Positions 5,992 through 53,632 of a stretch of 64,000 nt of DNA are shown here, in pieces (position 1 is the first letter of the stretch; every line of letters begins with the position of its first letter). Source of the DNA: a virus (Duplodnaviria > Caudoviricetes); IMG/VR virus record IMGVR_UViG_3300024507_000285; one strand, written 5' to 3'. Under the pieces are notes generated by a model. The model had not been told where the DNA came from. It searched no databases and was given only the letters and a program-made list of their open reading frames with translations. Both the position numbers and the translations under genes were made by a program.

Positions 5992-6437
5992 TTATTATTT
6001 CTTTTTACACTCTGTATGTCCAAAGTCCCTGTTTGTAAAGGACCACCGTAATCACCGTCAACAACAACATTAGCACATAGTTCACGGAACCAACGATCGA
6101 CAATTTCTTCGTCCAAATCACCGTCAGCACCATAACCTTCTTGCTTTAATTGTAGCACAAAATGTTCATTCCAGTCAAGTTCAAAAAAACCGTTACGAAC
6201 ATTGTCTTTGTTTATATGTGTATTTAACACGCCTACCCATGGTTCTTTCTTTCGAGTAGCACGATCTTTTGGACTCAATTTAGCCAATTCTTGTTCTTGA
6301 GCAATTTCTTTTAGGCTATTTTCGGCTTCTTCTTTTAATTTGTTAGCCTGTTCAAGTGCTAATCTTGCTTCTTCAATGTTGGCTTCGATTTTATCTAAAC
6401 CAAATAATTTTTTAATAAATTTCATTAAGTTCCCCAC
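5988..6437 (-). CDS. Hypothetical protein
   Basis: 149 aa, coiled-coil N-half, ATGA coupling. Confidence 0.7.
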   Translation of the reverse strand: MGNLMKFIKKLFGLDKIEANIEEARLALEQANKLKEEAENSLKEIAQEQELAKLSPKDRATRKKEPWVGVLNTHINKDNVRNGFFELDWNEHFVLQLKQEGYGADGDLDEEIVDRWFRELCANVVVDGDYGGPLQTGTLDIQSVKRNNK

Positions 6438-7288
6438 TCATTTTTAAATAATGGTACTTGTAGTCTATCACTATAGCGCAAGCCATTTTTCATCGCTAGT
6501 TCAGCGACCCTACGATTATTAAGAGTATAAACAGACTCCACCCCACCAACTGGCATAAGATATACGGGTCCTGTAAACCCTTCGGCTCTGTAAATGTCTG
6601 CTGTTTCAATTGCTTCTTCTGCATCTTCTTCTGTCGCTACTACAAACTTAAGGTAAGTGTAGCCAACCTCCTCATATTCACATACAATGTCTGGACGAAT
6701 AGCTTCACTGCGTTCTTCACCGGAACAACTTAGTTTAGCACTTACACTAAATGTAATTTCTTTATTATATTCTGGATGCGGCATCAACCATTCGATAGAA
6801 AGAAATTCTTTAAACTCTGGCGTTAGTTTTTGAGTACCATTAGTTTCAAAGGTAATCTCTTTTAAACCAGCCATCTTAGGATGGCGCAACAGATCTGGAT
6901 AAGCACGTTGCCAACCTAGTAACGGCTCGCCGCCTGTAATGACCAAGTGTTCGTCCTGCCACTGATTAAATGGAAGGATTTCGCAGATACGTTCTGCAAT
7001 ACCATCTGTTGTAAGCATAGGACTAAGATCTTTAAAACGAGGATCCCAACTAGCGTAACTATCACAGCCTGTGCTAACAAGCGGAAGTTCTTCGTATTTT
7101 GTATAAGGTTTTCTTTCGTGCTGGATAGCAATATCTTCAACTTCTGCACTTAGTTCGCCCTTTGGCATACCAAAGCCTGCACATTTAAAGTTACAACCAA
7201 ATGTACGTAAGAAAACAGAAGGCACACCCATAAAGCGTCCTTCACCTTGAATGCTATAAAATAGCTCTGCGATTTTAATTTTGCTCAT
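6425..7288 (-). CDS. queE: 7-carboxy-7-deazaguanine synthase (radical SAM)
   Basis: ELFYSIQGEG, VFLRTFGCNFKC...GCDS, ITGGEPLL, FETNGT, SAK, YLMP, RLQV. Confidence 0.9.
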   Translation of the reverse strand: MSKIKIAELFYSIQGEGRFMGVPSVFLRTFGCNFKCAGFGMPKGELSAEVEDIAIQHERKPYTKYEELPLVSTGCDSYASWDPRFKDLSPMLTTDGIAERICEILPFNQWQDEHLVITGGEPLLGWQRAYPDLLRHPKMAGLKEITFETNGTQKLTPEFKEFLSIEWLMPHPEYNKEITFSVSAKLSCSGEERSEAIRPDIVCEYEEVGYTYLKFVVATEEDAEEAIETADIYRAEGFTGPVYLMPVGGVESVYTLNNRRVAELAMKNGLRYSDRLQVPLFKNEWGT

Positions 7289-9114: not shown

Positions 9115-9935
9115 AGTGCTTTCAACCAGGGTAGATATTTAGTAGCAATGAGAGTGTGATAATCTTTATTATAATGTTCGTTGTCTTCGATAAAATATTT
9201 TGTATGGTCAATATTTTTATCTAAAAAGAATTTTTCAACGGTCTTAGGTGCTAATGTTGTAGCTTTTAATTGTCCGTAGTAGTTATAAACATCGGGAAAT
9301 TTCAATCTTTCTGTAAAATTAAAAAGATATAATTTAGCATTGTTTTCAAAACAAATTCTATCCCAGGCAAAGATTTGTAAACCAAAATCTCTTTTTTCTA
9401 AAAAAGAGTTTAATTCAAAAAATAATTTAACCTGCATATAAGTATTTTTTCTTAGATCAGGTTCTAATAATCCTTTCTCAGCAGATAAATTCATACCGGG
9501 AAATTTTGAATAATCGTCGTATGTGGGTTTATTGAATAATTGAAGTTTGTCTTTAACTACCGTATTGTCAACGTATCTAGAAATTAAAGAATTATCACTA
9601 TCACATTTTAATTTAAAATGATCTACAGGAATAACATCGTCGGATAATTCATTATCAAATCCTATTGTAAAACGATTTAAAGGTGCTACACATAGAAATA
9701 CTTCATCAATGTCGTTATATTCTTCAAACATCGATTTTAACCAGTCTGTATACACACGATTGTTTACACCTGCCATTGCATATATAGCCGCAGGTTTGTT
9801 TAGTTCGGACGAATAAATTTCTCCGTAATTATTTTCATTCCAGTAAGAAAAACTTCCTGGACCAATTTTTCCAGGAATACTATGGTATCCACAAGTATGA
9901 CTATCTCCAATAAACAACGATCTTGACATTACCAC
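9111..9935 (-). CDS. SGNH/GDSL hydrolase-like protein
   Basis: LFIGDSH, AMAGVNN, terminal DNEHY (DxxH). Confidence 0.6.
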   Translation of the reverse strand: MVMSRSLFIGDSHTCGYHSIPGKIGPGSFSYWNENNYGEIYSSELNKPAAIYAMAGVNNRVYTDWLKSMFEEYNDIDEVFLCVAPLNRFTIGFDNELSDDVIPVDHFKLKCDSDNSLISRYVDNTVVKDKLQLFNKPTYDDYSKFPGMNLSAEKGLLEPDLRKNTYMQVKLFFELNSFLEKRDFGLQIFAWDRICFENNAKLYLFNFTERLKFPDVYNYYGQLKATTLAPKTVEKFFLDKNIDHTKYFIEDNEHYNKDYHTLIATKYLPWLKAL

Positions 9936-10321
9936 TTCCTATAATTACCTCGTTCTGGAATAACGTGTCTAACCCCACCAGTGGGATCTTCCATATCGCC
10001 TGTTCGTCTTGGAATTAAATGTACATGAGGCCACGGAACCGTTTGTCCTGCTGATTGGCCATAGTTAAGACCAATATTAAACCCATCCCATTCTCCGGTG
10101 CCTACACGTTTAATTCCATCTTTAACTGCATCTTCAAAACAATCCATTAGCACATCAATAGTATTGTATTTAGGCACAAAAAGAAGATGGCCATCAGTAA
10201 CAGGATACTTATCTCTAAATACTCTAACATGATAGTCTTCCTCTACAAGTTCGGTCCACGGTGCTTTTGAATCTTCAATAAAATCAGGCTCCGACGGAAA
10301 TACTTTATGTTCGTGTTTCAT
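9929..10321 (-). CDS. HIT family nucleotide hydrolase
   Basis: DKYPVTDGHLLFVPK, GFNIGLN.GQ.AGQTV, PHVHLIPRR. Confidence 0.9.
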   Translation of the reverse strand: MKHEHKVFPSEPDFIEDSKAPWTELVEEDYHVRVFRDKYPVTDGHLLFVPKYNTIDVLMDCFEDAVKDGIKRVGTGEWDGFNIGLNYGQSAGQTVPWPHVHLIPRRTGDMEDPTGGVRHVIPERGNYRKW

Positions 10322-10905
10322 TTTGACCACCACTCTTCCCAAGGAAAATCAACCCATACATCCTCTTCTGCTTTGTTAATTTCCATGCCAACAAAATCCA
10401 TTTTTACATTACACTTACTAGCAAGATTATCAACTAAAACAGCAAATTTAACATTTTCGTTCCAAACTTCGTTCCACGAGTCGTCTCCTGGAAAACAACT
10501 AGAGCGCCAATCATCCATAATCCAATTAAAGGTAGCGCCACTATCGTTTATATCGTCTACAATTAAAATATTTTTGTAAGTAGCCCCGTCTTCTAACAAA
10601 CCACTAGCTACATCTAAAATACTTCCAATGTCGTTAGCATCGTCAATTATACGATCCTTAGTTGGAGGACCAAGTGCATCTTCTGCCATCCACATATTGC
10701 TTTCTCCACCGCTGCCATCTCTTAAACTAACATTTAAAGTCCACATTGGTACATTAAGATAATGACTCAACAATACAGCGGGAATAAGGCCACCGCGAGT
10801 TAGGCCAACAATATAATCTGGCTTCCAATATCCTGTTGCAATATTTCTTCCAATTTTTGAAACCAACCCTGTCATTTCATGCTGGTTGATTATGAGCTTT
10901 TTCAT
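10318..10905 (-). CDS. Purine (xanthine/guanine-type) phosphoribosyltransferase
   Basis: VGLTRGGLIPA, PRPP-binding ILIVDDINDSGAT, terminal WVDFPWE as in Gpt. Confidence 0.85.
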   Translation of the reverse strand: MKKLIINQHEMTGLVSKIGRNIATGYWKPDYIVGLTRGGLIPAVLLSHYLNVPMWTLNVSLRDGSGGESNMWMAEDALGPPTKDRIIDDANDIGSILDVASGLLEDGATYKNILIVDDINDSGATFNWIMDDWRSSCFPGDDSWNEVWNENVKFAVLVDNLASKCNVKMDFVGMEINKAEEDVWVDFPWEEWWSK

Positions 10906-11323
10906 ATCTCTCCTTTAGATACTCTTCATGTTGTATCCATTTACCGTTAACATCAAAACCCCAATCGCGTTGTTTAGGACCAGGCATAAAAATAGTCCAG
11001 CACTCAACACCTGGTTCTAATTCAACACGATGAAAGCTATTAGCACTACAAGTTCTAAAATGACCAGGACCTCTCCAGAATCTTCCTTCTGGAGTAGTTT
11101 CCCAGTAACCACCTTTGAGAATTAGTGTAGCATAAGGCCAAGGATGATCGTGTAAATCGTCCGGATCACCTTTTAAGAATTTGTGTAAAAAGATATTAAA
11201 TGGAAAACGATCTCTATCTTTTAGAAAAAGATAGTAACGTTCTAAATATGGTTCGTTTACTTCTCGATCCATAACGATACGTTTACGACCCATACCTTCT
11301 AAAAGATTAAGAAACCATTTCAT
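10877..11323 (-). CDS. Cupin-domain protein (start moved to MKWFLN)
   Basis: LHDHPW and FHRVEL cupin motifs; AAAGGA RBS before 11323. Confidence 0.7.
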   Translation of the reverse strand: MKWFLNLLEGMGRKRIVMDREVNEPYLERYYLFLKDRDRFPFNIFLHKFLKGDPDDLHDHPWPYATLILKGGYWETTPEGRFWRGPGHFRTCSANSFHRVELEPGVECWTIFMPGPKQRDWGFDVNGKWIQHEEYLKERYEKAHNQPA

Positions 11324-11535
11324 GTGCGATCCTTTAACCATGCGTCTACTTTTGCTTCTGCTTCTTCTTGTGTAACAGCATAAGCATAGATCCAAAAACA
11401 ATCATCTTTACCTTTGATATCAAAAGGAACACTACCGTTAAACAGGATTCCTTCTTCTAACATACGTTTTACTTCAAATTTCTTTAAATTTCTTGCACGA
11501 TTAATTAAATCGTTAGCCATGTCTACTGAATTCAT
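11320..11535 (-). CDS. Small hypothetical protein
   Basis: 71 aa, coupled on both sides. Confidence 0.6.
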   Translation of the reverse strand: MNSVDMANDLINRARNLKKFEVKRMLEEGILFNGSVPFDIKGKDDCFWIYAYAVTQEEAEAKVDAWLKDRT

Positions 11536-12278
11536 CTTGGGGCAAACTCCTGTTGTAGTTTAATGTTATCAAAGAATTCTTTCTTTGTACCAGGATCATC
11601 TTTAAACGCACCTTTGAGTACGGTGGTCTGTGTAAGACTAGAATGTGCCATAATACCACGATTCTCACAGCATCCGTGTACTGCTTGAATATAAACGCCT
11701 AGGTCTCTAGCTTCTGTGGCTTTTTCGATCTCCCGAGCAATGTCATTAGCAAGTTCCTCCTGGAGAGTACCACGTCGGGCACACCACTGGGCGATTCTTG
11801 TGTATTTGCTGAGTCCGATGAGCTTTTGGGCAGCAATAATACCAATATAAGCAACGCCAGTAACGGGTTGGTGATGATGGCTACACATACTGCGAAGCTC
11901 GCTACGAACAACCAACATACCTTCGTAACGGTCCTCCGAGTCATTTGGAAACGCTGTTGCTGATGGTTTTGGGTCATATCTTCCTGCCATTATTTCGTTA
12001 AAATACATCTTAGCAAGGCGACGTGCTGTGCCTTTACTATTAGGATCGTTTTCACGATCAATTAGCAACCGATCAAGCACTAGTTCAAATGCCTCTGTTG
12101 CTTCGTCAATTAGTCGTTCTTTATCGCCTTCGTGTAAAAAGTCGCTGATATTATCGCCAGCCCAAAAGCGTTTGCCCTCACGTTTCATTTTAAAACGAAG
12201 ATGATCGCCTAAGTATGCTTCTTCGTAACCACCGTTCCCTGCCATTGCGTCCAGGGCTGTTTCTTTTTTATCTGTCAA
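11532..12278 (-). CDS. folE: GTP cyclohydrolase I (TTG start)
   Basis: SMCSHHH, GLSKY, R-G-T-L-QE, HGCCENRG; GGAGA RBS. Confidence 0.93.
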   Translation of the reverse strand: MTDKKETALDAMAGNGGYEEAYLGDHLRFKMKREGKRFWAGDNISDFLHEGDKERLIDEATEAFELVLDRLLIDRENDPNSKGTARRLAKMYFNEIMAGRYDPKPSATAFPNDSEDRYEGMLVVRSELRSMCSHHHQPVTGVAYIGIIAAQKLIGLSKYTRIAQWCARRGTLQEELANDIAREIEKATEARDLGVYIQAVHGCCENRGIMAHSSLTQTTVLKGAFKDDPGTKKEFFDNIKLQQEFAPR

Positions 12279-12317
12279 TTAAATTTCTCCGAGTTAATGT
12301 CGTGGATGACATATTAG

Positions 12318-13379
12318 TTATTTTAACATATCTAATAGGTTATCGCAACTAAAATAGTTTTCTTTTAGTTTTGTTACTTGTTTATTTAGGCGAGGTAGAT
12401 AAGATTTATAATTTTCCATATAGTGAATAACTCGATCTACAACAGCACTTCTGTATTTTTTATAGCTGTCAAATGATTCTGTCCATTCGCTAGGATATTT
12501 GAAATCCTCCATTGACATTTCGCTGTAACTTAAACGATCTGGAACCATAGGTATTGCATCAACAATTGCACCTTCATACCAACTAATACCTAGTGTTTCT
12601 TGCAGGTTAGCACTAAACACAAGTTTAGCTTCTCCTAAGAAATTATGATATTCGTTTTTGGTTAGTTGGCGTTCTTGACAAACAACAAATTCATACTGCG
12701 GTAACTGCTCTTTAAGATCATTAAAAATGTCAACTTGTTTTTCAGGAGCAATACGATGAGGAAAAAGGATTAGATCTTTTTTAGCCATTCCTTTATATTG
12801 CAATAAAGTATCTTCCATATACTCCATTGGCCAACCAGTACGAGTCATTTTATAATAATTTTCTGGTCCGTACATACCGCCAAACAAATTCTTATTAAAC
12901 ATTTCGATATGAAATTGAGTAGCAAAGTAGTTGTGGTCGAACGCATGAAAGAAACTTTTCTCAGCGTGTCTAACCCAGGGAGCATCGCCGATGAGTCTGC
13001 CTAGAAAGTCTTGAGGATCGTATGACCCAGCATGCCATAAGCCATGTGTGGTTACTGGAATGTTCAATAACTCACTCATGTACTTTAAATTTATGATACC
13101 AGGATGCCAAGCATCAGTAAACAAAAAGTGATCGCCGGGATGAACGGCTCCGTTACAAAATAAACGCCCCATCTGCTCAACTTGGCTAGACTTATAGATA
13201 TTAGTCCCGCCAAAATTAAGAAAGGCGCCAGGAGTAGTGGCACTAGGAATGTCCGTAGGACCAGATATAATTTGAACATTGTGACCTGCCTTTCGAAGAA
13301 GTGAAGGTAAATGGGTTTTCCACTCGCCTGTATAGCGAGTTTCTACTGCTTCAAGGTCAACGAGGAAAACCCTTGCCAT
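12318..13379 (-). CDS. GT-B fold glycosyltransferase (GT4-like; start moved to MARVFLVD)
   Basis: FPHRIAPEKQ and ETLGISWYE (E-x7-E) nucleotide-sugar binding motifs; DAIPMVPD. Confidence 0.75.
   Translation of the reverse strand: MARVFLVDLEAVETRYTGEWKTHLPSLLRKAGHNVQIISGPTDIPSATTPGAFLNFGGTNIYKSSQVEQMGRLFCNGAVHPGDHFLFTDAWHPGIINLKYMSELLNIPVTTHGLWHAGSYDPQDFLGRLIGDAPWVRHAEKSFFHAFDHNYFATQFHIEMFNKNLFGGMYGPENYYKMTRTGWPMEYMEDTLLQYKGMAKKDLILFPHRIAPEKQVDIFNDLKEQLPQYEFVVCQERQLTKNEYHNFLGEAKLVFSANLQETLGISWYEGAIVDAIPMVPDRLSYSEMSMEDFKYPSEWTESFDSYKKYRSAVVDRVIHYMENYKSYLPRLNKQVTKLKENYFSCDNLLDMLK
12320..12348 (-). promoter_or_regulatory. Possible sigma70 promoter TTGCGA-N17-TAAAAT for folE
   Basis: Hexamers at 12343-12348 and 12320-12325. 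Confidence 0.4.
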
Positions 13380-13380
13380 A

Positions 13381-13641
13381 TTAACGACCCCTGCGATCGT
13401 AATTTCGATTGTCGTAGTTACGACCTTCGAATCTTGGTTTATTTCCTTGGTAAGGTCGACGTGGTCGCTTACTTGCCAAGTATGCACCATAATTAGGTGC
13501 ATCTTTACGATACAACTCCGCTGGATCAAAATTGCGAAGTTCGAAGCGACACCAGTCGTAGTATGCTTCTAGATCATCCCAAACTTTTACAACGTCCGGG
13601 CGGTTTTCAAAATAGGAATAATCCTTATAATTACGAGCCAT
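13381..13641 (-). CDS. Hypothetical protein with Arg/Gly/Asn-rich tail
   Basis: 86 aa, AAGGA RBS. Confidence 0.65.
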   Translation of the reverse strand: MARNYKDYSYFENRPDVVKVWDDLEAYYDWCRFELRNFDPAELYRKDAPNYGAYLASKRPRRPYQGNKPRFEGRNYDNRNYDRRGR

Positions 13642-13653
13642 TATAGCTTTCCT

Positions 13654-14043
13654 TTAGTACTTGATGAAACTACCATTTTCTCCGTCTTCGGAGACCTCAA
13701 TCCAAACCTCACGGTCGGGATACTTTTTGCTAATCATGTCATATAAATCATCTGACATCATTTCGCAACTTTTAAAATCTAAACTCAGTGTAGCATCTGC
13801 GTAGAGATTTTGCAACCAACGTTTAAATTGAATAAACTCAATATCGCGGTCATTGTGAGTAACACCAATCCATACCTTAAAATGGAAGATATGTCGATGT
13901 GGATAGCCTAGGAAACTTACATCATATTCATCACCTGTTGCTAGGTTAGGATCTGTAAGTGCTGCGGGATATTTGTGCATACCTTCTTTTTGAAAGGTAA
14001 CCCAAATCATTTTGTTAGGACGAATGTCTTGTTTGATAATCAT
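13654..14043 (-). CDS. Non-canonical QueD/PTPS-like T-fold protein (DpdL-like)
   Basis: EGMH, LGYPHRHIF, SCE, VSEDGENG; lacks QueD CxxxHGH. Confidence 0.7.
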   Translation of the reverse strand: MIIKQDIRPNKMIWVTFQKEGMHKYPAALTDPNLATGDEYDVSFLGYPHRHIFHFKVWIGVTHNDRDIEFIQFKRWLQNLYADATLSLDFKSCEMMSDDLYDMISKKYPDREVWIEVSEDGENGSFIKY

Positions 14044-14255
14044 ATTTGCATCAAGCCGTCGCACAGCTCTTTAATTTCATCTCTGGTCATATTAAAGTTA
14101 TAGATACTTGAAGTATCAACTTTACCTTGTTTATTTAGGCTTTCTTGCACAAAGTCTAAACTAATAAGACCTTTTGGAGCAATACATTCGTTTGCTACAA
14201 CCTTTAAACGAAAGCCGGGATTTTCATGTACAACAAATTCTTTTTTAACTCTCAT
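14040..14255 (-). CDS. Small hypothetical protein
   Basis: 71 aa, ATGA coupling. Confidence 0.6.
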   Translation of the reverse strand: MRVKKEFVVHENPGFRLKVVANECIAPKGLISLDFVQESLNKQGKVDTSSIYNFNMTRDEIKELCDGLMQI

Positions 14256-14632
14256 CTTTGCAAAGCCTCCATCATAATAATTTTTGCTAAACGATCACCT
14301 AAATCTTCTGCTTCTGTAATAACATGCATAGTATTTTGATTACGATCTCTATTACGATCATAACTACGAGTTTCTACAACGTATCCACCACTTGCTTTAT
14401 AAATCTGTAGTCGCATACCTTCGGAAGATAGTTTATCTTCTTCAACATAGATACCACGATCTGCTTCGATATCGTCTTGATGGTCCATTAACCAGTTGCG
14501 AAAACGTTGTTTTAAAGTTAGTTTCATTTCTTTCTTTCTTGCCTTTTTAATTTTATTCAATCCGTAACCAGGTGTTCTTGCGATTGACTTTTGGCCAATG
14601 GCGTAGCCTGCTGATACTTGTCCAGTACTCAT
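14252..14632 (-). CDS. Hypothetical protein
   Basis: 126 aa, ATGA coupling. Confidence 0.6.
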   Translation of the reverse strand: MSTGQVSAGYAIGQKSIARTPGYGLNKIKKARKKEMKLTLKQRFRNWLMDHQDDIEADRGIYVEEDKLSSEGMRLQIYKASGGYVVETRSYDRNRDRNQNTMHVITEAEDLGDRLAKIIMMEALQR

Positions 14633-15162
14633 TTAATAATTTCATCCTTGCCATATTGATCCCAATCTGTGAAGCGATCTCTTCCCAGAAGGTCCTGTAG
14701 GTTATGACACCATACCCCAGGATTAGTTGCTGAAAAATCTTTGTCGTCGATTTTAAGAGTGGCGTTATAACCTAGTTGATTAATATAAGGTAATTTTACA
14801 CTGATCTGCGGAATAAATCTACGTTTTTCGGTAAGACCGCTTTCAAGCAATCCTTCCGTTTCGCTGACATCAAAATCAAGAGTACACCAGAAACCGTCTT
14901 CGGCGTCTAAGCATACATAGATCATATCTTCCCAAGGACGCCAGGTTTCAACATCATTGACGCCGTTAGTTTTAAAACTTTGGTTAGCACCAAAATAGAT
15001 ATGTTTGCAGTCGTTATTACGAGCAAGTTCCATAATAACATATGGATCATGAACGCCTACAACAAAAAGAGTTTTCATTCCAAAGGCAGGAGTCTTTTCA
15101 ATTTCGACTCCTGTAAAGAAGGTGATGTTGTTTTCAACACCAGTGGAGTAATCACGTTTCAT
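14629..15162 (-). CDS. Hypothetical alpha/beta protein in deazaguanine cluster
   Basis: 177 aa; TLFVVG, HIYFGAN, KIDDKDF...NPGVWCH. Confidence 0.7.
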   Translation of the reverse strand: MKRDYSTGVENNITFFTGVEIEKTPAFGMKTLFVVGVHDPYVIMELARNNDCKHIYFGANQSFKTNGVNDVETWRPWEDMIYVCLDAEDGFWCTLDFDVSETEGLLESGLTEKRRFIPQISVKLPYINQLGYNATLKIDDKDFSATNPGVWCHNLQDLLGRDRFTDWDQYGKDEIIK

Positions 15163-15317
15163 TTTTTAAAAAGATTTTTAATTGACGTAAGTAAATTATA
15201 ATATCTTGCTTTGTAATTGTCAACAAGAATTTGGTTAACCACAGATTGATGAGGACATCTTCCTTGATTCCAAGTACAATTTGGTTGAACGTCTTCTTTA
15301 CAATATGTACATTTCAT
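15159..15317 (-). CDS. Small Cys-rich ORF missing from the ORF track (52 aa)
   Basis: Manual translation MKCTYCKEDVQPNCTWNQGRCPHQ...LFKK*; ATGA overlaps at both ends. Confidence 0.6.
   Translation of the reverse strand: MKCTYCKEDVQPNCTWNQGRCPHQSVVNQILVDNYKARYYNLLTSIKNLFKK
15195..15223 (-). promoter_or_regulatory. Consensus sigma70 promoter TTGACA-N17-TATAAT
   Basis: Perfect hexamers at 15218-15223 and 15195-15200, upstream of the 177-aa/DpdL-like/GT genes. Confidence 0.7.
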
Positions 15318-15496
15318 TCTTCTAGACCTGCTTGTTTAGCCTGCAATAAAACAATTTCATCTTTTAAAAATAATCTTTGTTTTTTTAATTCTTCTAGTCT
15401 TAAGTCTTCAAATAGCCCATTTTTTTCTAGCGTGTCGATTTGTTTATTCAACACTCGATGTGCTTCTTCTAAATGTTTAATTCTATTTTCGTACAT
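15314..15496 (-). CDS. YdcH/DUF465-like small coiled-coil protein
   Basis: HRVLNKQI...LEELKKQRLFLKDEI; GGAG RBS. Confidence 0.6.
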   Translation of the reverse strand: MYENRIKHLEEAHRVLNKQIDTLEKNGLFEDLRLEELKKQRLFLKDEIVLLQAKQAGLEE

Positions 15497-15505
15497 AAAA
15501 ACTCC

Positions 15506-17056
15506 TTATTCAACTTTAAGATTATCTAATGCTTCGTCTTCTCTATCATCAGTCCAAGAAGTTTCATCTTCTGATTCTTCATAGAACAATGTATCTGCAA
15601 TGTTAGTAACACCGCCACGTAGTCGAGCACCTTCTAAGTTCTGTAAGAAACCAAGTCGTTCAGCTTCTGCAATCATAGTAAATGCTTCATCTTTAGTTTT
15701 AAGAGCAAACAATTCTTCAACAAACTGATTAAAGTACAAAATATTACGAGGTACCCATTCCGAACGTTCATCGCTCTTATCGTTGTCTTTTACTTTACGC
15801 CAGTGTCTCCAATCTGGTTTGTAACTAGCGTATTCAATATCTGCAAGATTGTTTGCACGTTGAACAGCACGAATATGACATTCAACATTATGACCCATCA
15901 TTAGAGCATAAGCAAAACTATCCCAACTAGTTTTACCTTCCTTGCCAATCTTGTTTAACATTCCTGGAGCATAGTGGCAGATATCCGCGACCGTAAGTCT
16001 CCTACCAAAATCGGACTCGAAAGGAAAAGGTATATCGTGCCGTCCGGCAAGACCCTTATTGTCCGGGGCTTTATCCATGATAACACTGAATCGCTTATTG
16101 GTATGTTGGGCGTTAGTATATACCAATCCGTGAGCTGTTGCGATGAAAGGTGAAGCGCAGTCAAAGGAAATTGTGAAGTTTTCATTTACGTGTTTTCTAA
16201 TTTGACGTTGAATGCTTGTTAAGTAACAAGCCCAATCCAGCTGTGCGGTACCCAAGAAGTGCATCCAATCCTTGCCTTCTAGCATACCATCAAAACGCAT
16301 AGTGATTAGTCTGCGTAGTGTAATAGGCATTTTGCACATATTAGCACCACCCATAGCCCAACCTTCTGCGGCTTTGTCTCCATACTTGTTTGTATCGGAA
16401 TATTCTTTTACACCCTGGTACCACGCTTCTGCGTTTTCCCAGTTGCTACCTTGTAAAACATTTAATAGCTTAGTGCCGCCTTCTTTGGCACCTAAACGAT
16501 TTTGAATAAAGTATTCGTTATTAAAACGAGTCTTTTCTAAACAATCTTCAAACGATTTTAATCCTGTCTTTGGGCTGTGAATGTGATCACAAGCCCATGT
16601 CGGAACGTCTAGCATCATTGACCAATCAGCAGTTACGTCTAACCAAGTTAAAATCTTTTCGCGAGTTTTATTTGCTTCAGTACCTTCAAAGTTTTGCCAG
16701 TCAAACTTAATAACACCTTTACCGATCTGATAACCGCCTGAATCTCCTAAGATCATTGTCTTTGAACGATCACGCTGTTGAATCATAGATTCTTGCGTCA
16801 TAGACTTAGTAATGTCTAATTGAGCATGACCCGCTGAATACAAGGCAAATTTATAATAAAAATATCCTTGTTCGGGATTTAAAAAATTCATACCTTCAAT
16901 ACCGCGATCAAAGTCTTTAGGAATGCGGTCATCTGGAATAAATTTTTCTAAACGTTGTTTTGCAACGTATGTAGAATAGAAAGAACTAATAGCTGGTAAG
17001 TATACCGCATAGTCCTTTTGTAGTGGTGTTAAATCAACTGGTGGTTGTTTCTTCAT
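15506..17056 (-). CDS. dpdA: DpdA-type 7-deazaguanine DNA transglycosylase (TGT fold)
   Basis: GDSGGYQ, MMLDVP, VLQG, GWAMGG, HFLG, SFDCASP map in order onto TGT motifs; no bacterial-TGT CxCxxC. Confidence 0.82.
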   Translation of the reverse strand: MKKQPPVDLTPLQKDYAVYLPAISSFYSTYVAKQRLEKFIPDDRIPKDFDRGIEGMNFLNPEQGYFYYKFALYSAGHAQLDITKSMTQESMIQQRDRSKTMILGDSGGYQIGKGVIKFDWQNFEGTEANKTREKILTWLDVTADWSMMLDVPTWACDHIHSPKTGLKSFEDCLEKTRFNNEYFIQNRLGAKEGGTKLLNVLQGSNWENAEAWYQGVKEYSDTNKYGDKAAEGWAMGGANMCKMPITLRRLITMRFDGMLEGKDWMHFLGTAQLDWACYLTSIQRQIRKHVNENFTISFDCASPFIATAHGLVYTNAQHTNKRFSVIMDKAPDNKGLAGRHDIPFPFESDFGRRLTVADICHYAPGMLNKIGKEGKTSWDSFAYALMMGHNVECHIRAVQRANNLADIEYASYKPDWRHWRKVKDNDKSDERSEWVPRNILYFNQFVEELFALKTKDEAFTMIAEAERLGFLQNLEGARLRGGVTNIADTLFYEESEDETSWTDDREDEALDNLKVE

Positions 17057-18204: not shown

Positions 18205-20874
18205 TCATTCAAAATCAAACAATTTGTTAAATGTATTGTCACTTCTAGTTTGACTGATGTCCCATTCTAGTACTCCAATTAAGTTTTCTAGTTTTTCATC
18301 AATCACGGTAGTTTCCATAGTTGCATCATCGAATGGTAAATCTTTAAACCATTGTGGCAAACGTAGTTCGTCTACTGGATAAGCTACTGAGGTATATGCC
18401 ATCGGATTATCTTTGATTTTACAAACAATGACTTTTGCGCCATCAACGATGTTCATTGAGTATTTGTCGTCAAACATTCTCTTGAGAGTATTCCAATTAA
18501 GACTAGCACGAACGTGTCCGGGCATATTAGCCTTACCTTGTTTCTTTTCTTTGGCAGCATATTCTGTAATGTTGTTGGCTCGCTTAGGTGAACCCTTCTC
18601 CCAACCAGGTCGAGTCTTAAACTCTGTTCTAAAATCTGTGATGTATTCTAGAACTTCTTCTTTACTATGACCAGTTAAGACCATTTCAAGAACTTTGCTT
18701 AGGAAGTCTTGGATAACAACCGGGGTATCTGACCGCTTGAGGTCAAGCCCCATAGCTTTAATCTTGCCTGGCTTTCCTTCGACATCTGTACGTTTTCCTT
18801 CTTTGTCGTAGTAGAGGACGGCATATCGTTTCTTTGTAATGAATAGTCCTTTGGAAGCAACAATCTCGCGACCTGCTTTGATGACCTCTCCTCGATTTTT
18901 TGGGCAGTGGAAGACATCGGACATAAATTTTGCAAAGGTTCCATTTACTTCTTCTCCTATGGTATCATAAAGTTCAATTACATTTTCACGAGACCACGGT
19001 ATGGTCCCTTTCTCAATGTCCTTCTTCAGCGTAGTGTATGCTGAGAAGTAACAAGAGTCTGTGTCACCGTAGATAATAGCTTTACCTACATGGTTAAATT
19101 CGCCTGTGATAATTTCGTTTACTTTACTTGCCATATGTTTGGCAATTTGTCTACCAGTAAGAGTTGTGGATTGACCAATTCTGTTATCAAAGAATCTACA
19201 TCCAGGATTAAGAATAGCACCGTATAATGAGTTTAAGTTAATCTTTTTAACTAATTGACGTTTGTCCCAGTATTCTTCTTCAATCTTATTACCTGCTTGA
19301 ATACATTCTTTTAGTTTGGCCTGCATTTCTTTACGTTCTGAATACCATCTCTTAAGCAGTCCTGGAATAATACCTTCTTTTTCGTAGGTAAAGATAGTTC
19401 CATTTGCAGAGATCATCCACGGTTGATTACTTTCAAAAATTAAATCGTAAATTTGTGCTCCGCTAAGAGTATCACTACCGCCGCCTTCCCAGTCAATGGT
19501 AATTTCACGACCTACTTCTTTTTCCATTACAGAAGTATATTCTAAAGAACCAAAAATACCTTCCCATGCTGCCGCAAATGATTTGCCTTTAGCCATCTCT
19601 GCTTCAATGTATGCTTTAGTTCCATCTGGACGTAGTTGACCAACAATGGTCTCTGGTCCCATGTTCAAAGCCCTAATAGCAGAAGGATAAAGACTATTAA
19701 TATCAAGAGAACCAATCCACTCATGTATACCTTTCTTAGGATATGCAACATAAGCACCAGCGGCCTGTGTGTCTGCTCCAGCTTCTCGTTGTACACGGTT
19801 AGGAACAATCATGCCTCGTCTGTGTGCTTCATTAATAATTGCTTGTTCTGTAACAGCAACAGCACCCATAGTTGTTTGAATAAGAACCGTATTTTCATGT
19901 GCAATGGTGTTAGCAAGATCGATAAATTTTAATTTTTTATCTAACTTATCTAACAATGCACAATCTTGTCGGTTATACTCAATAAACTTTCGAAAATCGT
20001 TATTGTAAAGTTGATCAAGTGTTCCTTCGTAAACGGTCTTAGACTCGCCTACTTCCATTTCCCCGATCGCGTCCAGTCTGTATGTATGTCTTTCTTCGTA
20101 TGTGTACTTTCTGTATAGTTCCAACGAGTCAACGTGAACACGCCCAACCAAGTCATAGGTAACAGCAGTTTTGCCAAACTTTTCATATTCTCTCTTTTTT
20201 GGATATTGATTCCATAAACAGAATCGACGAGTATCTTCTTTGCTTAGGACTTTGATTACACGATTAACGGTATATGGAATATCAAAACCTTCCGAGTTCC
20301 AACCACTTAATACATCTGCTTCTTCAATAAGGGTTAAAAATGTATCTAACATGTCTGCTTCATTTTCAAAGAGCATAGTGTTAGGAAATTCTGCAACAGC
20401 CTTCTCAGCTTCTTCCATATTCATAGTTTTTGGAGGAATAGCCAAACAGACCATAGTTTCCATCCATTGTAGATGAACGGCAATGGCAGTAATTGGCATG
20501 AATGCATCGTCGGGTGATGCATAGCCACGCTCTGGGTCAAAGTCTACCTCAATATCAAAAAATGCTACATTTAATTTTGGAGCATCAATATTTAGATAAT
20601 GATCTTCTAAACAGCGATAGATTGGGTTAATGTCAGATTCGTAAAGTTTTTTGTTTGAATGAATTGCAAGTTCTTTGCGAAGTTCTTTTACATTCTTGCA
20701 ACTTACACGACTTAGGGGCTCGCCCTTGATTGATTGAAATTTACCTTTTGGATCAAGGTAATAAAAAAGGTGTTTGGCGGCATAATCTTTATAGTGCCTT
20801 TGACCTTTGTCATCACGTTCAACGACACGAATTGTGTCGTTTTCGCGATCATAGAATGCGTCAACGTAGCTCAT
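18205..20874 (-). CDS. Family B DNA polymerase (gp43-like; start MSYVDAF)
   Basis: FFDIEVD, GWNSEGFDIPY, YNRQD, SLDINSLYPS, KINLNSLYG, YGDTDS. Confidence 0.96.
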   Translation of the reverse strand: MSYVDAFYDRENDTIRVVERDDKGQRHYKDYAAKHLFYYLDPKGKFQSIKGEPLSRVSCKNVKELRKELAIHSNKKLYESDINPIYRCLEDHYLNIDAPKLNVAFFDIEVDFDPERGYASPDDAFMPITAIAVHLQWMETMVCLAIPPKTMNMEEAEKAVAEFPNTMLFENEADMLDTFLTLIEEADVLSGWNSEGFDIPYTVNRVIKVLSKEDTRRFCLWNQYPKKREYEKFGKTAVTYDLVGRVHVDSLELYRKYTYEERHTYRLDAIGEMEVGESKTVYEGTLDQLYNNDFRKFIEYNRQDCALLDKLDKKLKFIDLANTIAHENTVLIQTTMGAVAVTEQAIINEAHRRGMIVPNRVQREAGADTQAAGAYVAYPKKGIHEWIGSLDINSLYPSAIRALNMGPETIVGQLRPDGTKAYIEAEMAKGKSFAAAWEGIFGSLEYTSVMEKEVGREITIDWEGGGSDTLSGAQIYDLIFESNQPWMISANGTIFTYEKEGIIPGLLKRWYSERKEMQAKLKECIQAGNKIEEEYWDKRQLVKKINLNSLYGAILNPGCRFFDNRIGQSTTLTGRQIAKHMASKVNEIITGEFNHVGKAIIYGDTDSCYFSAYTTLKKDIEKGTIPWSRENVIELYDTIGEEVNGTFAKFMSDVFHCPKNRGEVIKAGREIVASKGLFITKKRYAVLYYDKEGKRTDVEGKPGKIKAMGLDLKRSDTPVVIQDFLSKVLEMVLTGHSKEEVLEYITDFRTEFKTRPGWEKGSPKRANNITEYAAKEKKQGKANMPGHVRASLNWNTLKRMFDDKYSMNIVDGAKVIVCKIKDNPMAYTSVAYPVDELRLPQWFKDLPFDDATMETTVIDEKLENLIGVLEWDISQTRSDNTFNKLFDFE

Positions 20875-20883
20875 TTTTTCTCC

Positions 20884-20903
20884 TTGCAATTTTTGGCTTG
20901 CAA
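20884..20903 (-). promoter_or_regulatory. Hairpin abutting polymerase RBS
   Basis: UUGCAA-GCCAAAAA-UUGCAA followed immediately by GGAG. Confidence 0.4.
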
Positions 20904-22689: not shown

Positions 22690-22890
22690 TTATTTATTCT
22701 TTCCGCTTTTCATATTTGCACACCAGTGATACATTTTAGATTTCTCACCCGATGCATTTTTTGCACGTTTGCGTAGATCAGTAACTGAACCAGAACAACT
22801 AGCCCCTGAACGTTTTACTCTTCCGGGGCGGCTTTTTCCTTTAACTTTTCCGTCAGCAAAGTTTTCTATAACAAACTCTTTAGCTCTCAT
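22690..22890 (-). CDS. Small basic putative internal head protein
   Basis: N-terminus MRAKEFVIE resembles T4 capsid-targeting sequence MKTYQEFIAE. Confidence 0.6.
   Translation of the reverse strand: MRAKEFVIENFADGKVKGKSRPGRVKRSGASCSGSVTDLRKRAKNASGEKSKMYHWCANMKSGKNK
22691..22698 (-). promoter_or_regulatory. Late-promoter-like AATAAATA
   Basis: 7 nt before ATG at 22683. Confidence 0.45.
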
Positions 22891-24056
22891 CTCATTGCTA
22901 CCTGGAAAGCCTGATGCTTTTCTTTTCTAGAGTCTAAATGTTTAAGCCCGGGATTGATAGTTTTAGTAACCGCTTTAGTATCTTTAAAACTATCAATTTT
23001 TGGTGCTACTCTATTTTTCCAATACCAAACTGCTACTTTAGCAGCAATTTCTGGTTTTTCTACAAGTTCGGGTTTTTGCTCTAACGGCAATCCTAATGCT
23101 TGGCCTGCTTTCTTATAATTGTCTCGACCTGTCAGCTGTATGTATCCGCGACCTTTATATTTTGCTCCGTCTCCAACATTTTTATTACCCAATGCTTTTG
23201 CTTTTTTAGGAGCATATTTAGGATCATATTTTCGAAAGTCTAATGATCCGCCTATTTCTTTCATGTGTTTAAAATCTAAAGTTTCGTGAGCGCATTGTGC
23301 TAAAAACGCTGTAAGCTCGTGACCTACTATACCTGCTTTTTCAGCAGCCTTTTTTAAGTAGACTTCGTGGGGATTACCGGTTACGCTTTTTGCAATATCT
23401 TTTTTAGATACCTGTTGAATAACATCCGGTTTAGAATGTTTAGCATTAGCATCACTAGGAGCACCGAATGCCATTGCAGTTCCTAGTGCCCCGGCTGCTG
23501 CCCAGTCCTTCCATCCCTCGTCAACTTCTCCCTTAGCAGCAGTTTTTAATGCAGAAAAGACTTTAGATAAACTATCTTCGTCTGCTTGATACTTAATAGC
23601 AATACCGCCCGCTTGTTGCCAAGCACGAATGTTTACACCGTAATCGTCAATAAGAATATTAGGAGTACCGTCAGCATTTTTTGCATATTTGTATTTTTCG
23701 TGTTCGAATATAATTTTGTCAGCAGGAACATGAATATGTTTTTTCAGCCATTCACGTTTACCTCTAATGCTTCCTTCTTTATCAAAGTTTAATGGGCTGC
23801 TTAAAATATTATAACCACCTGCATAATCAACTACTATGCTTAAAAGTTTATTAGCAGTAGAAAATGCCGGAAGGTCACGAAATAATTCATAGGCATTAGA
23901 GTCTTTAAAAAATGTTTCCCATTGATCTTTTGTCATTTTATTGTAGTGCTCTACATCATGTAAACCTCCTACATGATTAAAAAGATCAGCAAGGACTCCG
24001 TCCATATCAACATAGACTTTCATTCCTTTGGGTAAACTAAACTCTTCTGCTCTCAT
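22887..24056 (-). CDS. Fusion: HAD 5'(3')-deoxyribonucleotidase (NT5C) + GH19 lysozyme/chitinase-like domain
   Basis: VYVDMDGVLAD, LSSP, ILIDD; then AQCAHET, YKGRGYIQLTGRDNY, AVWYW. Confidence 0.85.
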   Translation of the reverse strand: MRAEEFSLPKGMKVYVDMDGVLADLFNHVGGLHDVEHYNKMTKDQWETFFKDSNAYELFRDLPAFSTANKLLSIVVDYAGGYNILSSPLNFDKEGSIRGKREWLKKHIHVPADKIIFEHEKYKYAKNADGTPNILIDDYGVNIRAWQQAGGIAIKYQADEDSLSKVFSALKTAAKGEVDEGWKDWAAAGALGTAMAFGAPSDANAKHSKPDVIQQVSKKDIAKSVTGNPHEVYLKKAAEKAGIVGHELTAFLAQCAHETLDFKHMKEIGGSLDFRKYDPKYAPKKAKALGNKNVGDGAKYKGRGYIQLTGRDNYKKAGQALGLPLEQKPELVEKPEIAAKVAVWYWKNRVAPKIDSFKDTKAVTKTINPGLKHLDSRKEKHQAFQVAMR

Positions 24057-24652: not shown

Positions 24653-25278
24653 TATGCTGTGGCTGGTTCGCCTGTACGAGAAACTTCCCATTTCTTGCCA
24701 GTCTGTTCAGTTTTCTTACGGCACATGTCTTGCAATCTACGAAGCTGAGCCATTTCTCTGTGATCGTCTGCGTATGTTCCTTGACCAGGAAACACTTTCC
24801 ATTTTTTACCGTTGATATAGATAGCAAAGTTATTTGGTGGTTCGGTGTTGCCCTCGTCCCAATCATCTTCTCTATTTCTACGTCCAAATCCGCTTACGCT
24901 ACTATCGTAATCTCTTTGATAAGCATCACGTCCAAAACCTGATTCTTTCATAGGATCCTTTCCTGCCTGTACTTTTTTATACCATGAAATTAATTCAGCA
25001 TCACTAGCAAGTTCAAGATAGTTTATTTCCCAGTCCATCTTTTTAGCTAAGAATTGAATAATTTGTTGTCTTTTAGATCTATCTAATAAACCTTCTGTTA
25101 CTTCTGCTGGTTTTTTATGTTTTTCATATCCTTGTTTTTGTGCCTTCTTCATATCTTTATGAGCACCGGCACCTGAGATAACACTTTGTGCAGCATGAGC
25201 TACAGGGTTTCTAGGTTTGACATTATACACTTTTGCTCTTCGGCTTTTCTTATGTTCTAATATATCAGATATTTTCAT
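24652..25278 (-). CDS. Modular putative internal head protein
   Basis: MKISDILE|H, VTE|G, MKE|S, WDE|G junctions. Confidence 0.6.
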   Translation of the reverse strand: MKISDILEHKKSRRAKVYNVKPRNPVAHAAQSVISGAGAHKDMKKAQKQGYEKHKKPAEVTEGLLDRSKRQQIIQFLAKKMDWEINYLELASDAELISWYKKVQAGKDPMKESGFGRDAYQRDYDSSVSGFGRRNREDDWDEGNTEPPNNFAIYINGKKWKVFPGQGTYADDHREMAQLRRLQDMCRKKTEQTGKKWEVSRTGEPATA

Positions 25279-28200
25279 GATGATCTCTTTTGTTTAGGAC
25301 CCTTACGAGTTTTCCATTTTTTATCAGTGGAACACCAATAGCGTCCATATCCTTCTTTTACTTCTTTCTTTTTAGGATAACCGTGTTTTATTTCTAGTTG
25401 ATAACCCTGTAATCCTTGTTTATCTAAAACCTTACTAATAAATTCTTCGGCTTCTTTCGCAGAAGAAAATTTATCACCTAAATTATATTTCCTCATTTCG
25501 CCATCGATCATTACATAGGCAATAGTAATAGGTTTGACTGGTTCTTCTGCCGCCTGTGCCGGACTTGCTAATAAATTAGCAGCAGCTAAAGCTGCGCCTG
25601 CCGTTTTACTTTTCCAACCTTCTTCAACGCTATCAATCATTGGATCAATACCGCGACTTCGGATTCCACCTTTTCTTCTTACTTTAGCAAGTTCTTCTAA
25701 GGCATGACGAATTTGTTCTACATTCATTTTAAGTTCGTCAAATTGTTTGGCCATGTTTTGCCATTCGTATGGACTAGCATTGTCTACTCTGCTAGCAAGA
25801 TCTTTAATTTGTCCAGCTGCTCTCATCATTCTATATTTTAACTTCGCTGGGTTGGCTTTGTCATGGCTATGAATCATAGGATTCATTGGTTCGGAAGGAT
25901 CCATTTCAATCGGTGCTTCAGATATGCTTTCTTGAATACCCATGCCCTTGCGTGTGAAATCCATTAATTTCATAATCCAATCTTTCCCTAATTTTTGAAC
26001 ATCAAAACCTTGAGACCATAATGCAAATTGCTGTTCTGGAGTAGCATTAGGATCTTTTAAAATGTTACGTAATTTAGTAAAACTCATTCCAGTTCCGCCA
26101 GTTTCGGCAGCTCTTGGTGTAACTTCTACATCAAATTTAACATGTTCAAATCCTGGATATTTAGGATTCTTCATCCTTTTAGATAAATGCTCCATCCATT
26201 TTTTAAATCCTTCATATCGATCTTCGCCAACCATAACAATGATATGATCGTATGGAGGAGGATTACTTGATGTTACTAATTCTTTTTCAATTTTTTTCAT
26301 AACTAATCCACCTTCTTGGATCAGCTGGAACATGGCCTTCTTTTCTGGATATAATTTTTGCCATGTTTGTAATTTAACAGAAGCTGGAATAGGATCGTCT
26401 GGTCCCACGGCACTACTAATATAAACATAAGGATCAGCATTTAACTGAGACGCTTTGTTTAAAACAAAATCTACAAGTTGTTGATGTCCAATGTGCCCAA
26501 CAAAACTTCCTGCGGTAACGACAGCAGTTTTGCCCGATCTTCCATCGCCTGTTGCTCCAGGAGGTCTTGCAGATTTAATTGCTGCGTTTTTTGCAGAAAT
26601 AATATCTTTTTGTTCTTGACTAGTAATTTTAACAGGACCATTCTTTGTGTTAAGAATAATGCCTTCATAATCTTTGCCTAACTTATCCTTTCCTATAATA
26701 TCTGGATGTTGGATGATAAATTTTGCTAGATATTCTTTGACAGGCTGCAATGCTTCGGTAGCTTCTTTTTTAAGATCTCTTTTACCGCTATTAACTAACG
26801 ATCGTAATGTTTCAAGATTTTCAATGGGAGGCAATGCCCCAGTTACATCTAAACTGCCGTTAGTAGTTAACGAGTTGTCAATGAACATTGTTGTTCCAAT
26901 GCGACCAATTTTTCTCAATGCAGAGATGTATTTGTCGCTATTTGGATGTTGTTCGCCAGTTGAGCTTTTTTCAGCAAACAATGGCACAAGTGCTAGAGTA
27001 ACACCTTCGGGCAACTTGTCATAATGTATGCCAACAAATTTTAATTTACCATCTTCTGTTTCAGTAGCAAATGGTAGATATAAAACTTCACAATGAATTT
27101 TTACATCATTGAGAGCGGTATTACCTAATTTTTGATCAACGTTAGCAATGACATGCATCATCTCGTCGTATAGATCATCAAATAACTTAGCCCTAGCTTT
27201 TACATCTGGAGCGGCTTGTCTTTCTTCAGCATGTTTGCTGAATGTACCAGGTTCAAACTTAGGACCACTACGACTAGTTTCCATATATGGTTTGCCAGAT
27301 TTATCTTTACCAAACCTAGCACCAAACCCGTCTACTTTAACGGTCATTGGAACATTGTGTAATTCAAATTTTCCTGTTGCTGAATTTTTTAATTCGTCTA
27401 ATAAATTTAAAAAATCAGAATCCTTCATTTTTTCTAAATGAACAATTCCTTTTCTTTTACTTTGTACTACTTCGGCTTCGTTAATACTTTCGGATACTTT
27501 GTAACTTGCTTTATAATCTTGACGCATTTGTTCAAGATTTTTATGAGGTGTAACGTTTAAAGTTTTTAATGCATAGTTAAGTGCTGTATTTTTTTCTAAG
27601 ATATCTCTTTCAGGATCGCCTTTATATAATCCTTGTGCGCCAGGAGCATATAGCTTATCAATAAATGCATCAATGACTTTTTCCTTTTCATCCTGAGGAA
27701 CAACAAGATTCATAATTTCTAATAATCCTGTAAAACTCCATGTCTTAGGAAGAAGTTTTTGTATTTCTGTTTCTTTAACTCTTTTACCAAATATGTTTTG
27801 GAAAATTTTTCCAATATTCTTTTCGTAACCACTTGCTGGCAACGCCCTCATAACAGGAAGACCGTCAATTTCTAAAGGCTGTCCGGCATCGTCTAATACT
27901 GGTTCATATTTAGGACGAAGGCCTCCGCCTTCTTTGCTACTAACAGCAAAAGAAAACATATTGTCTGTTGTTGGAACATCTTGTTCAACTCTAGCTTTAC
28001 CTCGGCCAACCATTTTTCTTAATAAAAAATCTTGGCTTGTTAATCGTGTAAATGATTGAATTAGATACTTGTGAAATACACCTTTGATACCTTGGCTTAA
28101 ATCTTCCCAGCTACTGCTATGACTAAATCCTGCCCAATCAGTGGGTTCGTCTTTTTCATAATCTACAAATTCAAGATCAATCTGTACCTTAATAGGAGGA

Positions 28201-33669: not shown

Positions 33670-33675
33670 AATACT

Positions 33676-53618: not shown

Positions 53619-53632
53619 AGTATTTTTTTTCC

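Follow-up and report, generated by a model that had tools for sequence, protein, structure and literature searches.

A 64,000-nucleotide stretch of phage DNA, IMG/VR record IMGVR_UViG_3300024507_000285 (Duplodnaviria; Caudoviricetes; hereinafter referred to as the window), was found to carry a predicted 7-deazaguanine DNA-modification module with a gene for a glycosyltransferase (GT) inside it. Taken as a whole, the gene set is, on balance, probably best explained as a module of the DpdL type in which the GT is an integral component that adds a sugar to the deazaguanine. The source, an uncultured jumbo phage from freshwater, has Pseudomonas phage PA5oct and Sinorhizobium phage Phosso as distant relatives. 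A first-pass annotation, made from the sequence alone, had described a co-oriented run of genes for DpdA, a T-fold protein, a GT-B glycosyltransferase and FolE, with QueE 4 kb downstream, and all five are present on the minus strand, at or near the places it gave. The genes central to the argument are listed below in minus-strand order; five or six small open reading frames (ORFs), o177 among them, separate the dpdA-like gene from the T-fold gene.

15506-17056, minus strand: DpdA-type DNA-guanine transglycosylase of 516 aa, a long, divergent DpdA3-related form, with transglycosylase fold and Asp motifs
14629-15162, minus strand: o177, conserved protein of 177 aa between dpdA and dpdL, present in 65 of 80 related loci
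13654-14064, minus strand: DpdL-type T-fold protein, predicted 7-carboxy-7-deazaguanine (CDG) decarboxylase, with a likely start at M19 (14010)
13381-13641, minus strand: conserved ORF of 86 codons, encoding a basic tail and flanked by dpdL and the GT gene
12318-13379, minus strand: GT4-like retaining GT-B glycosyltransferase of 353 aa, from its structural model and EX7E motif
11532-12278, minus strand: FolE, GTP cyclohydrolase I (Pfam GTP_cyclohydroI, PF01227, E 1e-38; phrog_2197, E 5e-44), as first annotated
6425-7288, minus strand: divergent QueE, 7-carboxy-7-deazaguanine synthase

Linkage of the glycosyltransferase to deazaguanine genes

The gene order DpdA...o177...DpdL-GT-FolE...QueE was maintained in 80 GT-centred contigs. 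When contigs were centred on DpdA and had at least 5 kb of downstream sequence (n = 33), this GT was present in 31. The remaining two (L152 and L159) were considered as relatives lacking the GT, which was rejected because a divergent GT, 21-25% identical, occupies the same slot. In L159 (8989-11128) the divergent GT is followed by an NAD-dependent epimerase/dehydratase of the sugar-nucleotide type; variant GTs were also noted in L173 (5010-6353). Two subtypes of DpdL and two of the GT occur in all four combinations.

Among cultured phages, no fewer than seven lineages have the GT next to DpdL and/or a gene of the DpdA type. In the PA5oct group, DpdA, GT and DpdL are contiguous and followed by QueE, and in Xanthomonas phage BUDD the order is FolE...GT-TGT-DpdL-QueE, TGT denoting a tRNA-guanine transglycosylase-type gene. 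Phosso carries DpdL-GT-x-FolE...QueE, with DpdA elsewhere. Acidovorax phage ACP17, a T4-like phage with a polymerase only 27% identical, has the order QueD...FolE-(o177-like)-DpdA3-GT-DpdL-QueE, in which the GT gene lies exactly between the DpdA3 and DpdL genes. The GT lies <3 kb from DpdL in Xanthomonas phage X1 and Burkholderia phage BCSR5. In the T4-like cyanophage BUCT-ZZ01, whose host is Synechococcus elongatus PCC 7942, the cluster reads QueE-XGPRT-x-QueD-FolE-(second GT)-(416 aa)-DpdL-GT variant; it holds a GT of the second subtype plus a further one of 447 aa. The second subtype and the additional GTs hint at different sugars or a disaccharide. Distant members of the GT family (28-32% identity) likewise adjoin DpdL and deazaguanine genes.

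The same association was found in prokaryote assemblies, where 32 loci had 3 kb or more flanking the GT on each side. A DpdA-type gene was located within 5 kb of the GT in 30 of these loci and DpdL in 20. Twelve loci, all on alphaproteobacterial contigs, contained DpdA and the GT without DpdL, FolE or QueE. From the prokaryotic and viral loci together, the most constant partner of the GT is thus the base-exchange enzyme DpdA. Synteny of the GT with dpdA across related phages had been proposed as a check in the first-pass annotation; adjacency to dpdA and/or dpdL is kept in phages, viral contigs and most of the prokaryote loci, and the GT is very probably a functional part of the deazaguanine module rather than a chance neighbour.

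Three bacterial loci were inspected, and they appear to be mobile or defence-type islands, not prophages. In Pelagibacterium mangrovi (L183), a resolvase gene is followed by genes for a DpdA-like protein, a weak YhhQ/Vut_1-like match, the GT and a LuxR regulator. The Shimia ponticola locus (L196) comprises ABC-3C genes, a LuxR-type response regulator, a MASE1 histidine kinase, a Vut_1-like protein, the GT, a DpdA-like protein, a 585-aa protein, a second GT and an integrase. In Magnetospirillum aberrantis (L205), HEPN, MASE1 kinase, LuxR regulator and CoiA-nuclease-like genes are accompanied by the GT, DpdL, a DpdA-like protein and PTPS. Such GT-DpdA islands may represent an undescribed bacterial cassette for nucleic-acid modification.

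Predicted enzymes of the module

The first-pass annotation had placed the GT directly between the T-fold gene and folE, and the ORF listed for it has 403 aa. Its position between the two genes holds, but the start had been set too far upstream, as GT relatives begin at MARVF. The upstream stretch of the 403-aa ORF is occupied in another frame by the 86-codon ORF, which intervenes on the T-fold side. In tblastn searches, this ORF was matched at 34-90% identity in 132 related loci, against two for the GT extension, and it was not found in the PA5oct, Phosso, ACP17, 2.275.O, RHph_I1_18, Ahp1 and BUDD loci searched. The basic tail of its product is rich in Arg and Asn.

The AlphaFold2 (AF2) model of the GT, based on 63 relatives with 28-57% identity, had a pLDDT of 96 and two Rossmann-like domains, in agreement with the GT-B fold assigned earlier. 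The closest folds were retaining enzymes of families GT4, GT5 and GT20, namely sucrose-phosphate synthase (SPS), BshA, MshA, GlgM, glycogen synthase and PglA (VIA Z 22-26; about 25 for the GT4-type enzymes), of which SPS, BshA and MshA aligned at VIA Z 24-26 with a root-mean-square deviation of about 3 Å over about 300 residues. The GT contains an EX7E motif at 261-269 together with R209, K214 and H116. Among the 63 relatives, Q66, G118, E140 and E269 were invariant, and H116, R209, K214 and E261 were present in at least 90%. EX7E with R209 and K214 is what we take to be the donor-binding and catalytic signature of GT4 enzymes, and because these residues are conserved, the GT is predicted to be intact and looks active.

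The GT itself had no match in Pfam, PHROGs or NCBIfam; of its 63 relatives, 45 weakly matched PF00534 (Glycos_transf_1; best E 1.3e-8) and 5 matched PF13439. In sequence searches of the PDB, the single GT sequence gave no useful match, and its profile matched nothing but the C-terminal domain of AmGGT (8xsg; E 5e-6). A likeness to the T4 glucosyltransferases had been suggested in the first-pass annotation. No specific likeness was seen among the top matches: the T4 α- and β-glucosyltransferases were absent from the top 50 PDB fold matches, and the DNA α-GT of cyanophage S-TIM5 ranked only 44th (TM 0.52/0.45) among the matches in BFVD, which include many generic viral GTs, whereas GT4 small-molecule enzymes matched best. 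The structural matches also included a pterin glucosyltransferase (9v0l, rank 43) and VldE, a pseudo-glycosyltransferase. QTMAN/GTDC1 was not among the top 30 Swiss-Prot fold matches and no DUF3524-type Pfam match was found in the 63 relatives, although a distant relation to the GT may exist. The GT family is abundant: clustering at 90% identity leaves at least 8000 clusters, and of the representatives at 50% identity at least 1111 match with E up to 0.001.

The two Asp motifs first noted in the 516-aa protein were confirmed, with DSGG at 105 and FDC at 298. D105 (in LGDSGGYQ) and D299 (in SFDCAS) are invariant in the homologues of PA5oct, Phosso and Vibrio phage 2.275.O. The AF2 model (30 relatives; pTM 0.77, core pLDDT 80-96) showed the TIM-barrel fold of TGTs, and the top 50 PDB matches in Foldseek were all Z. 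mobilis tRNA-guanine transglycosylase (E 3.5e-7 to 3e-5). Given this fold and both Asp motifs, the protein is a DpdA-type enzyme, predicted to exchange guanine in DNA. An hhalign comparison of its family with DpdA3-like proteins from ACP17, BUDD, BUCT-ZZ01 and a metagenomic contig (L169) gave 97.3% probability (E 2.5e-11) with the DSGG motifs aligned, although pairwise identity to DpdA3 is only about 22%; identity to EST35_0316 of PA5oct is 42%. No match was found in Pfam, NCBIfam or PHROG, and PDB searches returned nothing useful with the single sequence and nothing with the profile. The zinc motif of tRNA TGTs (CxCxxC...H) was not detected, the protein having no CxC or CxxC. In Vibrio phage 2.275.O, the same DpdA family adjoins QueF, a YhhQ-type transporter, a QueC-like protein and FolE, which fits a DpdA role regardless of which deazaguanine is made.

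The o177 protein had no family match in Pfam, PHROGs or NCBIfam. It may be a DpdA accessory, since the ORF that immediately precedes DpdA3 in ACP17 is 31% identical to it. A protein-atlas search of o177 gave a weak primase (AEP)-like lead (score 0.9).

The T-fold protein is not the QueD of the FolE-QueD-QueE pathway cited in the first-pass annotation: its motif LGYPHRHIF corresponds to LxxxHRHxF in place of the CxxxHGH of QueD. LxxxHRHxF defines DpdL, a predicted CDG decarboxylase (Cui, Hutinet et al., NAR 2023; PMC10516641). H38, R39, H40 and F42 were invariant in 24 relatives. All 24 relatives also share an invariant Cys in an S-C-E motif, together with D54-R55 and E108-D109, despite the loss of the QueD Cys, and these residues could be the real active site of DpdL. 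The window DpdL is 72% identical to that of Phosso, 56% to PA5oct 0318, 55% to ACP17 and 33% to phiST; in tblastn against Cellulophaga phages phiST, phi13:1 and phi19:2, identity was 33% over 88% of the length (E 7e-8). FolE, QueE and DpdA all accompany DpdL in the window, as expected for this protein. The module is therefore assigned to the DpdL type, as in phiST, and the predicted base is plain 7-deazaguanine.

The QueE candidate, located 4.2 kb downstream of folE and thus where the first-pass annotation had indicated, gave only weak radical-SAM matches in Pfam. In NCBIfam, it matched five models for QueE at about 1e-11, short of the cut-offs set for them, and its identity to the proteins annotated as QueE in phages BUDD and 2.275.O is 31% (E 1e-34 to 1e-40). 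QueC, QueF and an amidotransferase (Gat) were not found in the 64-kb window by tblastn.

Candidate pathway and alternative explanations

In the proposed pathway, GTP would be converted to CDG by FolE, QueD (encoded elsewhere in the genome or by the host) and QueE, which is established for these families, and DpdL would strip the carboxyl group from CDG to give 7-deazaguanine, as predicted by Cui et al. (PMC10516641). The DpdA-type enzyme with its TGT fold would then, judging from its family, exchange guanine for deazaguanine in the phage DNA after replication. In the last step, suggested by gene linkage only, the GT would move a sugar from a nucleotide-sugar to the deazaguanine, either as the free base or in DNA. 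The outcome would be virion DNA with glycosylated 7-deazaguanine, which would block restriction. The presence of sugar-bearing deazaguanine in DNA is, in our judgement, about evenly balanced. A fuller version, in which the GT and DpdA would produce the first glycosylated purine base in any genome, widespread, with a lineage-variable sugar on the core (e.g. N2), is put forward more tentatively, at slightly below an even chance.

The idea that the GT glycosylates the inserted deazaguanine came from the first-pass annotation. Its membership of the module was upheld by the conserved linkage, but acceptor and timing were not, because plain deazaguanine has no hydroxyl and a comparable enzyme acts on a free base. 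HuiG of huimycin biosynthesis, a GT4-family enzyme (PF13439), transfers GlcNAc from UDP-GlcNAc onto a free preQ0-derived 7-deazapurine (bioRxiv 10.64898/2026.04.15.718813). In view of HuiG, glycosylation of the free base before insertion is as plausible as that of the inserted base. Since deazaguanine lacks a hydroxyl and the GT occurs with DpdA in the absence of DpdL, the acceptor is more likely a core atom common to 7-deazaguanines, such as the 2-amino group, than a C7 substituent. The sugar in huimycin is reportedly linked to the 2-amino group. That the sugar differs between lineages, as in T-even phages, is suggested by the epimerase/dehydratase next to one variant of the GT and by the additional GT that BUCT-ZZ01 and Shimia each carry.

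The DNA of PA5oct resists restriction at five G-containing sites, from which its authors infer a modified G, and this is the nearest thing to experimental support. Full-text searches of open-access papers and bioRxiv found no report of glycosylated deazaguanine in DNA, in line with the earlier suggestion of an uncharacterised modification, although a report may exist elsewhere. The PA5oct omics paper, a jumbo-phage review and a DNA-glycosylase preprint contained nothing on the base chemistry, and Cui et al. (PMC10516641) do not mention a glycosyltransferase.

Several observations weigh against a sugar-adding module. Six DpdL lineages have no detectable GT of either subtype, namely the Cellulophaga phiST group, Chryseobacterium MA9V-3, Rhizobium RHph_I1_18, Aeromonas Ahp1, Vibrio Bakedbeans and D479. 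In phiST, the deoxynucleoside of 7-deazaguanine (dDG) was measured in DNA, replacing all G (PMC10516641); thus, the GT is dispensable for deazaguanine DNA and would be an add-on to a working dDG system. The closest structures of the GT act on small molecules, not on DNA, and as 7-deazaguanine has no hydroxyl, the reaction would have to be an N- or C-glycosylation. QueD was not found in the 64-kb window by tblastn or an ad hoc hidden Markov model; the QueD-like gene of PA5oct sits far from its deazaguanine cluster, so that QueD may be encoded beyond the window. Members of the GT family are acidic (median pI 5.8), which was judged uninformative since the DpdA-like protein is also acidic. In addition, the chemistry of the GT-bearing phages is predicted from genes.

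The GT could instead glycosylate a soluble molecule, either a free deazapurine, as in huimycin, or a pterin by-product of FolE and the T-fold enzyme, and the DNA would then contain plain dDG. Pterin-glycosylating enzymes are known, an example being the cyanobacterial tetrahydrobiopterin glucosyltransferase. The small acceptors used by the best structural matches (BshA, MshA, SPS, and 9v0l at rank 43), the precedent of HuiG and the formation of dDG in phiST without a GT all fit such a target. However, DpdA is the steadiest neighbour of the GT, even in the 12 loci without FolE, QueE and DpdL, and it would be hard to explain why a soluble-glycoside pathway is kept among the replication genes of so many phage lineages; we regard this explanation as unlikely. 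If the GT acted on something else, for instance glycans of the host envelope, a protein or a hydroxymethyl-pyrimidine in DNA, the adjacency would reflect no more than a shared class of early or replication genes. Phages often carry GT4-type enzymes for other purposes, and generic viral GTs are among the BFVD matches, but the adjacency persists across genome architectures, DpdA subfamilies and bacterial islands, and no hydroxymethylase or thymidylate-synthase-like gene was found among the window ORFs scanned (those outside 25275-28676 and 48612-63358), so that this possibility appears quite improbable.

We likewise give little credence to the view that the GT-fold protein is a non-glycosylating helper, that is, a pseudo-glycosyltransferase or scaffold needed by DpdL or DpdA. 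Such a role would be consistent with the occurrence of VldE among the structural matches and with an E. coli experiment in which the DpdL-DpdA pair of ACP17, expressed without the GT gene that lies between them, yielded no dDG (PMC10516641). The decarboxylation of CDG by DpdL, however, could not be reconstituted in E. coli with the phiST pair either (PMC10516641), and phiST has no GT. Moreover, the GT4 donor and catalytic signature (EX7E, R, K) is conserved, and some variants adjoin a sugar-nucleotide epimerase/dehydratase or a second GT.

Relation to known systems, surrounding genes and significance

The DpdL/DpdA3 system of phiST (PMC10516641) shares FolE, QueE, a DpdL with LxxxHRHxF, a DpdA-type enzyme, the lack of QueC and a nearby DNA polymerase with the window. 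It differs in having no GT homologue, whereas the window has a longer DpdA, about 22% identical to DpdA3, and in addition a phosphoribosyltransferase (PRTase), a HIT protein and several conserved ORFs. The T4 α/β-glucosyltransferases are also GT-B enzymes encoded among phage DNA-metabolism genes, and decorate a modified base (5-hydroxymethylcytosine) against restriction; however, no specific similarity to the window GT beyond the fold was seen among the top matches, and their acceptor is a hydroxyl, which 7-deazaguanine lacks. HuiG resembles the window GT in being a GT4-type enzyme encoded beside FolE/QueD/QueE-type genes and in transferring a sugar to a 7-deazapurine base, a likeness drawn from its description, not from sequence. 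It acts on a free base and belongs to a secondary-metabolite cluster without a transglycosylase.

In eukaryotic tRNA, QTMAN (GTDC1) and QTGAL glycosylate queuosine. They parallel the proposal in that a GT acts on a 7-deazaguanine derivative placed in nucleic acid by a TGT, but the nucleic acid there is tRNA and the sugar goes onto a hydroxyl of the cyclopentenediol side chain. The bacterial Dpd system (DpdA, DpdB and DpdC) produces dPreQ0 and dADG in DNA and is accompanied by restriction genes. A DpdA-type enzyme in mobile or defence islands is common to this system and to the GT-DpdA islands, which lie near resolvase or integrase, ABC-3C, HEPN and CoiA-like nuclease genes. In contrast, no DpdB or DpdC was found in the GT-island ORFs scanned; the islands hold the GT and a weak YhhQ-like transporter match or DpdL, adjoining a MASE1 kinase and a LuxR regulator. 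To our knowledge, all glycosylated DNA bases are pyrimidines (glucosyl- or arabinosyl-hydroxymethylcytosine and base J), and the approximately eight 7-deazaguanines that we know of in DNA are all sugar-free.

The window has about 36% G+C and almost all of its genes are on the minus strand. The stretch is also present in at least 20 riverine metagenome runs, and the 516-aa protein was found letter-identical on contigs of up to 223 kb. None of 50,697 phage records matched the region by megablast. In minus-strand order, the region comprises genes for a DNA polymerase, the 245-aa protein, the 123-aa ORF, the dpdA-like gene, small ORFs, T-fold gene, 86-codon ORF, GT and folE, and continues after folE with o174, PRTase, HIT protein, two uncharacterised ORFs, dCMP deaminase, QueE, o149 and exonuclease. 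The genes surrounding those listed above are as follows.

18205-20889, minus strand: family-B DNA polymerase, a single uninterrupted gene
between the DNA polymerase and dpdA-like genes, minus strand: 245-aa protein, whose homologue is a PA5oct virion protein
between the 245-aa protein gene and the dpdA-like gene, minus strand: 123-aa ORF
10877-11401, minus strand: o174, conserved protein of 174 aa, in 72 of 80 related loci, with no family match
10318-10905, minus strand: 6-oxopurine-type PRTase, a probable module accessory (Pfam Pribosyltran, E 1.5e-10)
9929-10342, minus strand: HIT-family protein (Pfam HIT, E 8e-10) of uncertain connection to the module, found in 55 of the 80 related loci
downstream of HIT and two ORFs and ahead of QueE, minus strand: dCMP deaminase
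after QueE, minus strand: RNase H-like 5'-3' exonuclease, and o149

The PRTase showed weak matches to xanthine/HGPRT models; its homologues are the protein annotated as XGPRT in the cluster of BUCT-ZZ01 (E 3e-17) and, more weakly, EST35_0321 in that of PA5oct. It might recycle the guanine released by DpdA to GMP/GTP for FolE, or, by analogy with the tubercidin PRTase, might make deaza-GMP. The HIT protein gene adjoins that of the PRTase.

Other genes, all on the minus strand, were observed elsewhere in the window. A ClpB-like double AAA+ chaperone (770 aa) adjoins a full DnaJ (291 aa) at 30512-33699. At 40106-41315, the gene of a cytidylyltransferase-like nucleotidyltransferase (PF01467, 2e-17) overlaps that of a D-Ala-D-Ala carboxypeptidase (S11); the substrate activated by the nucleotidyltransferase could be a sugar or a cofactor. 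A 5'-deoxynucleotidase (NT5C) domain is fused with a chitinase-class-I/lysozyme-like domain at 22887-24056, and giant ORFs of 1668 and 2380 aa (48612-53618 and 56216-63358) lie in a stretch of higher G+C (0.42-0.45). The DNA polymerase gene of PA5oct (L001, 2605-7831) is interrupted by a Hef-like homing endonuclease gene, unlike that of the window.

This analysis adds bacterial islands that pair the GT with DpdA but lack DpdL, a second subtype of the GT with BUCT-ZZ01 as a cultured carrier, the precedent of HuiG and the recurrence of the PRTase. Cultured hosts exist for GT-bearing phages (Pseudomonas aeruginosa, Acidovorax citrulli, Synechococcus elongatus PCC 7942 and Sinorhizobium meliloti), so that the idea is directly testable. 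If the proposal is true, it could reveal what the modified G is in jumbo phages of the PA5oct type, which are targeted by END nucleases and considered for phage therapy, and may explain the failure of DpdL and DpdA alone in E. coli; it would also be relevant to the sequencing and cloning of such DNA. It would represent a new base chemistry, probably requiring an N- or C-glycosylating GT4 enzyme, and the system would be common among freshwater, soil and marine phages, PA5oct included, as well as in genomic islands of alphaproteobacteria.

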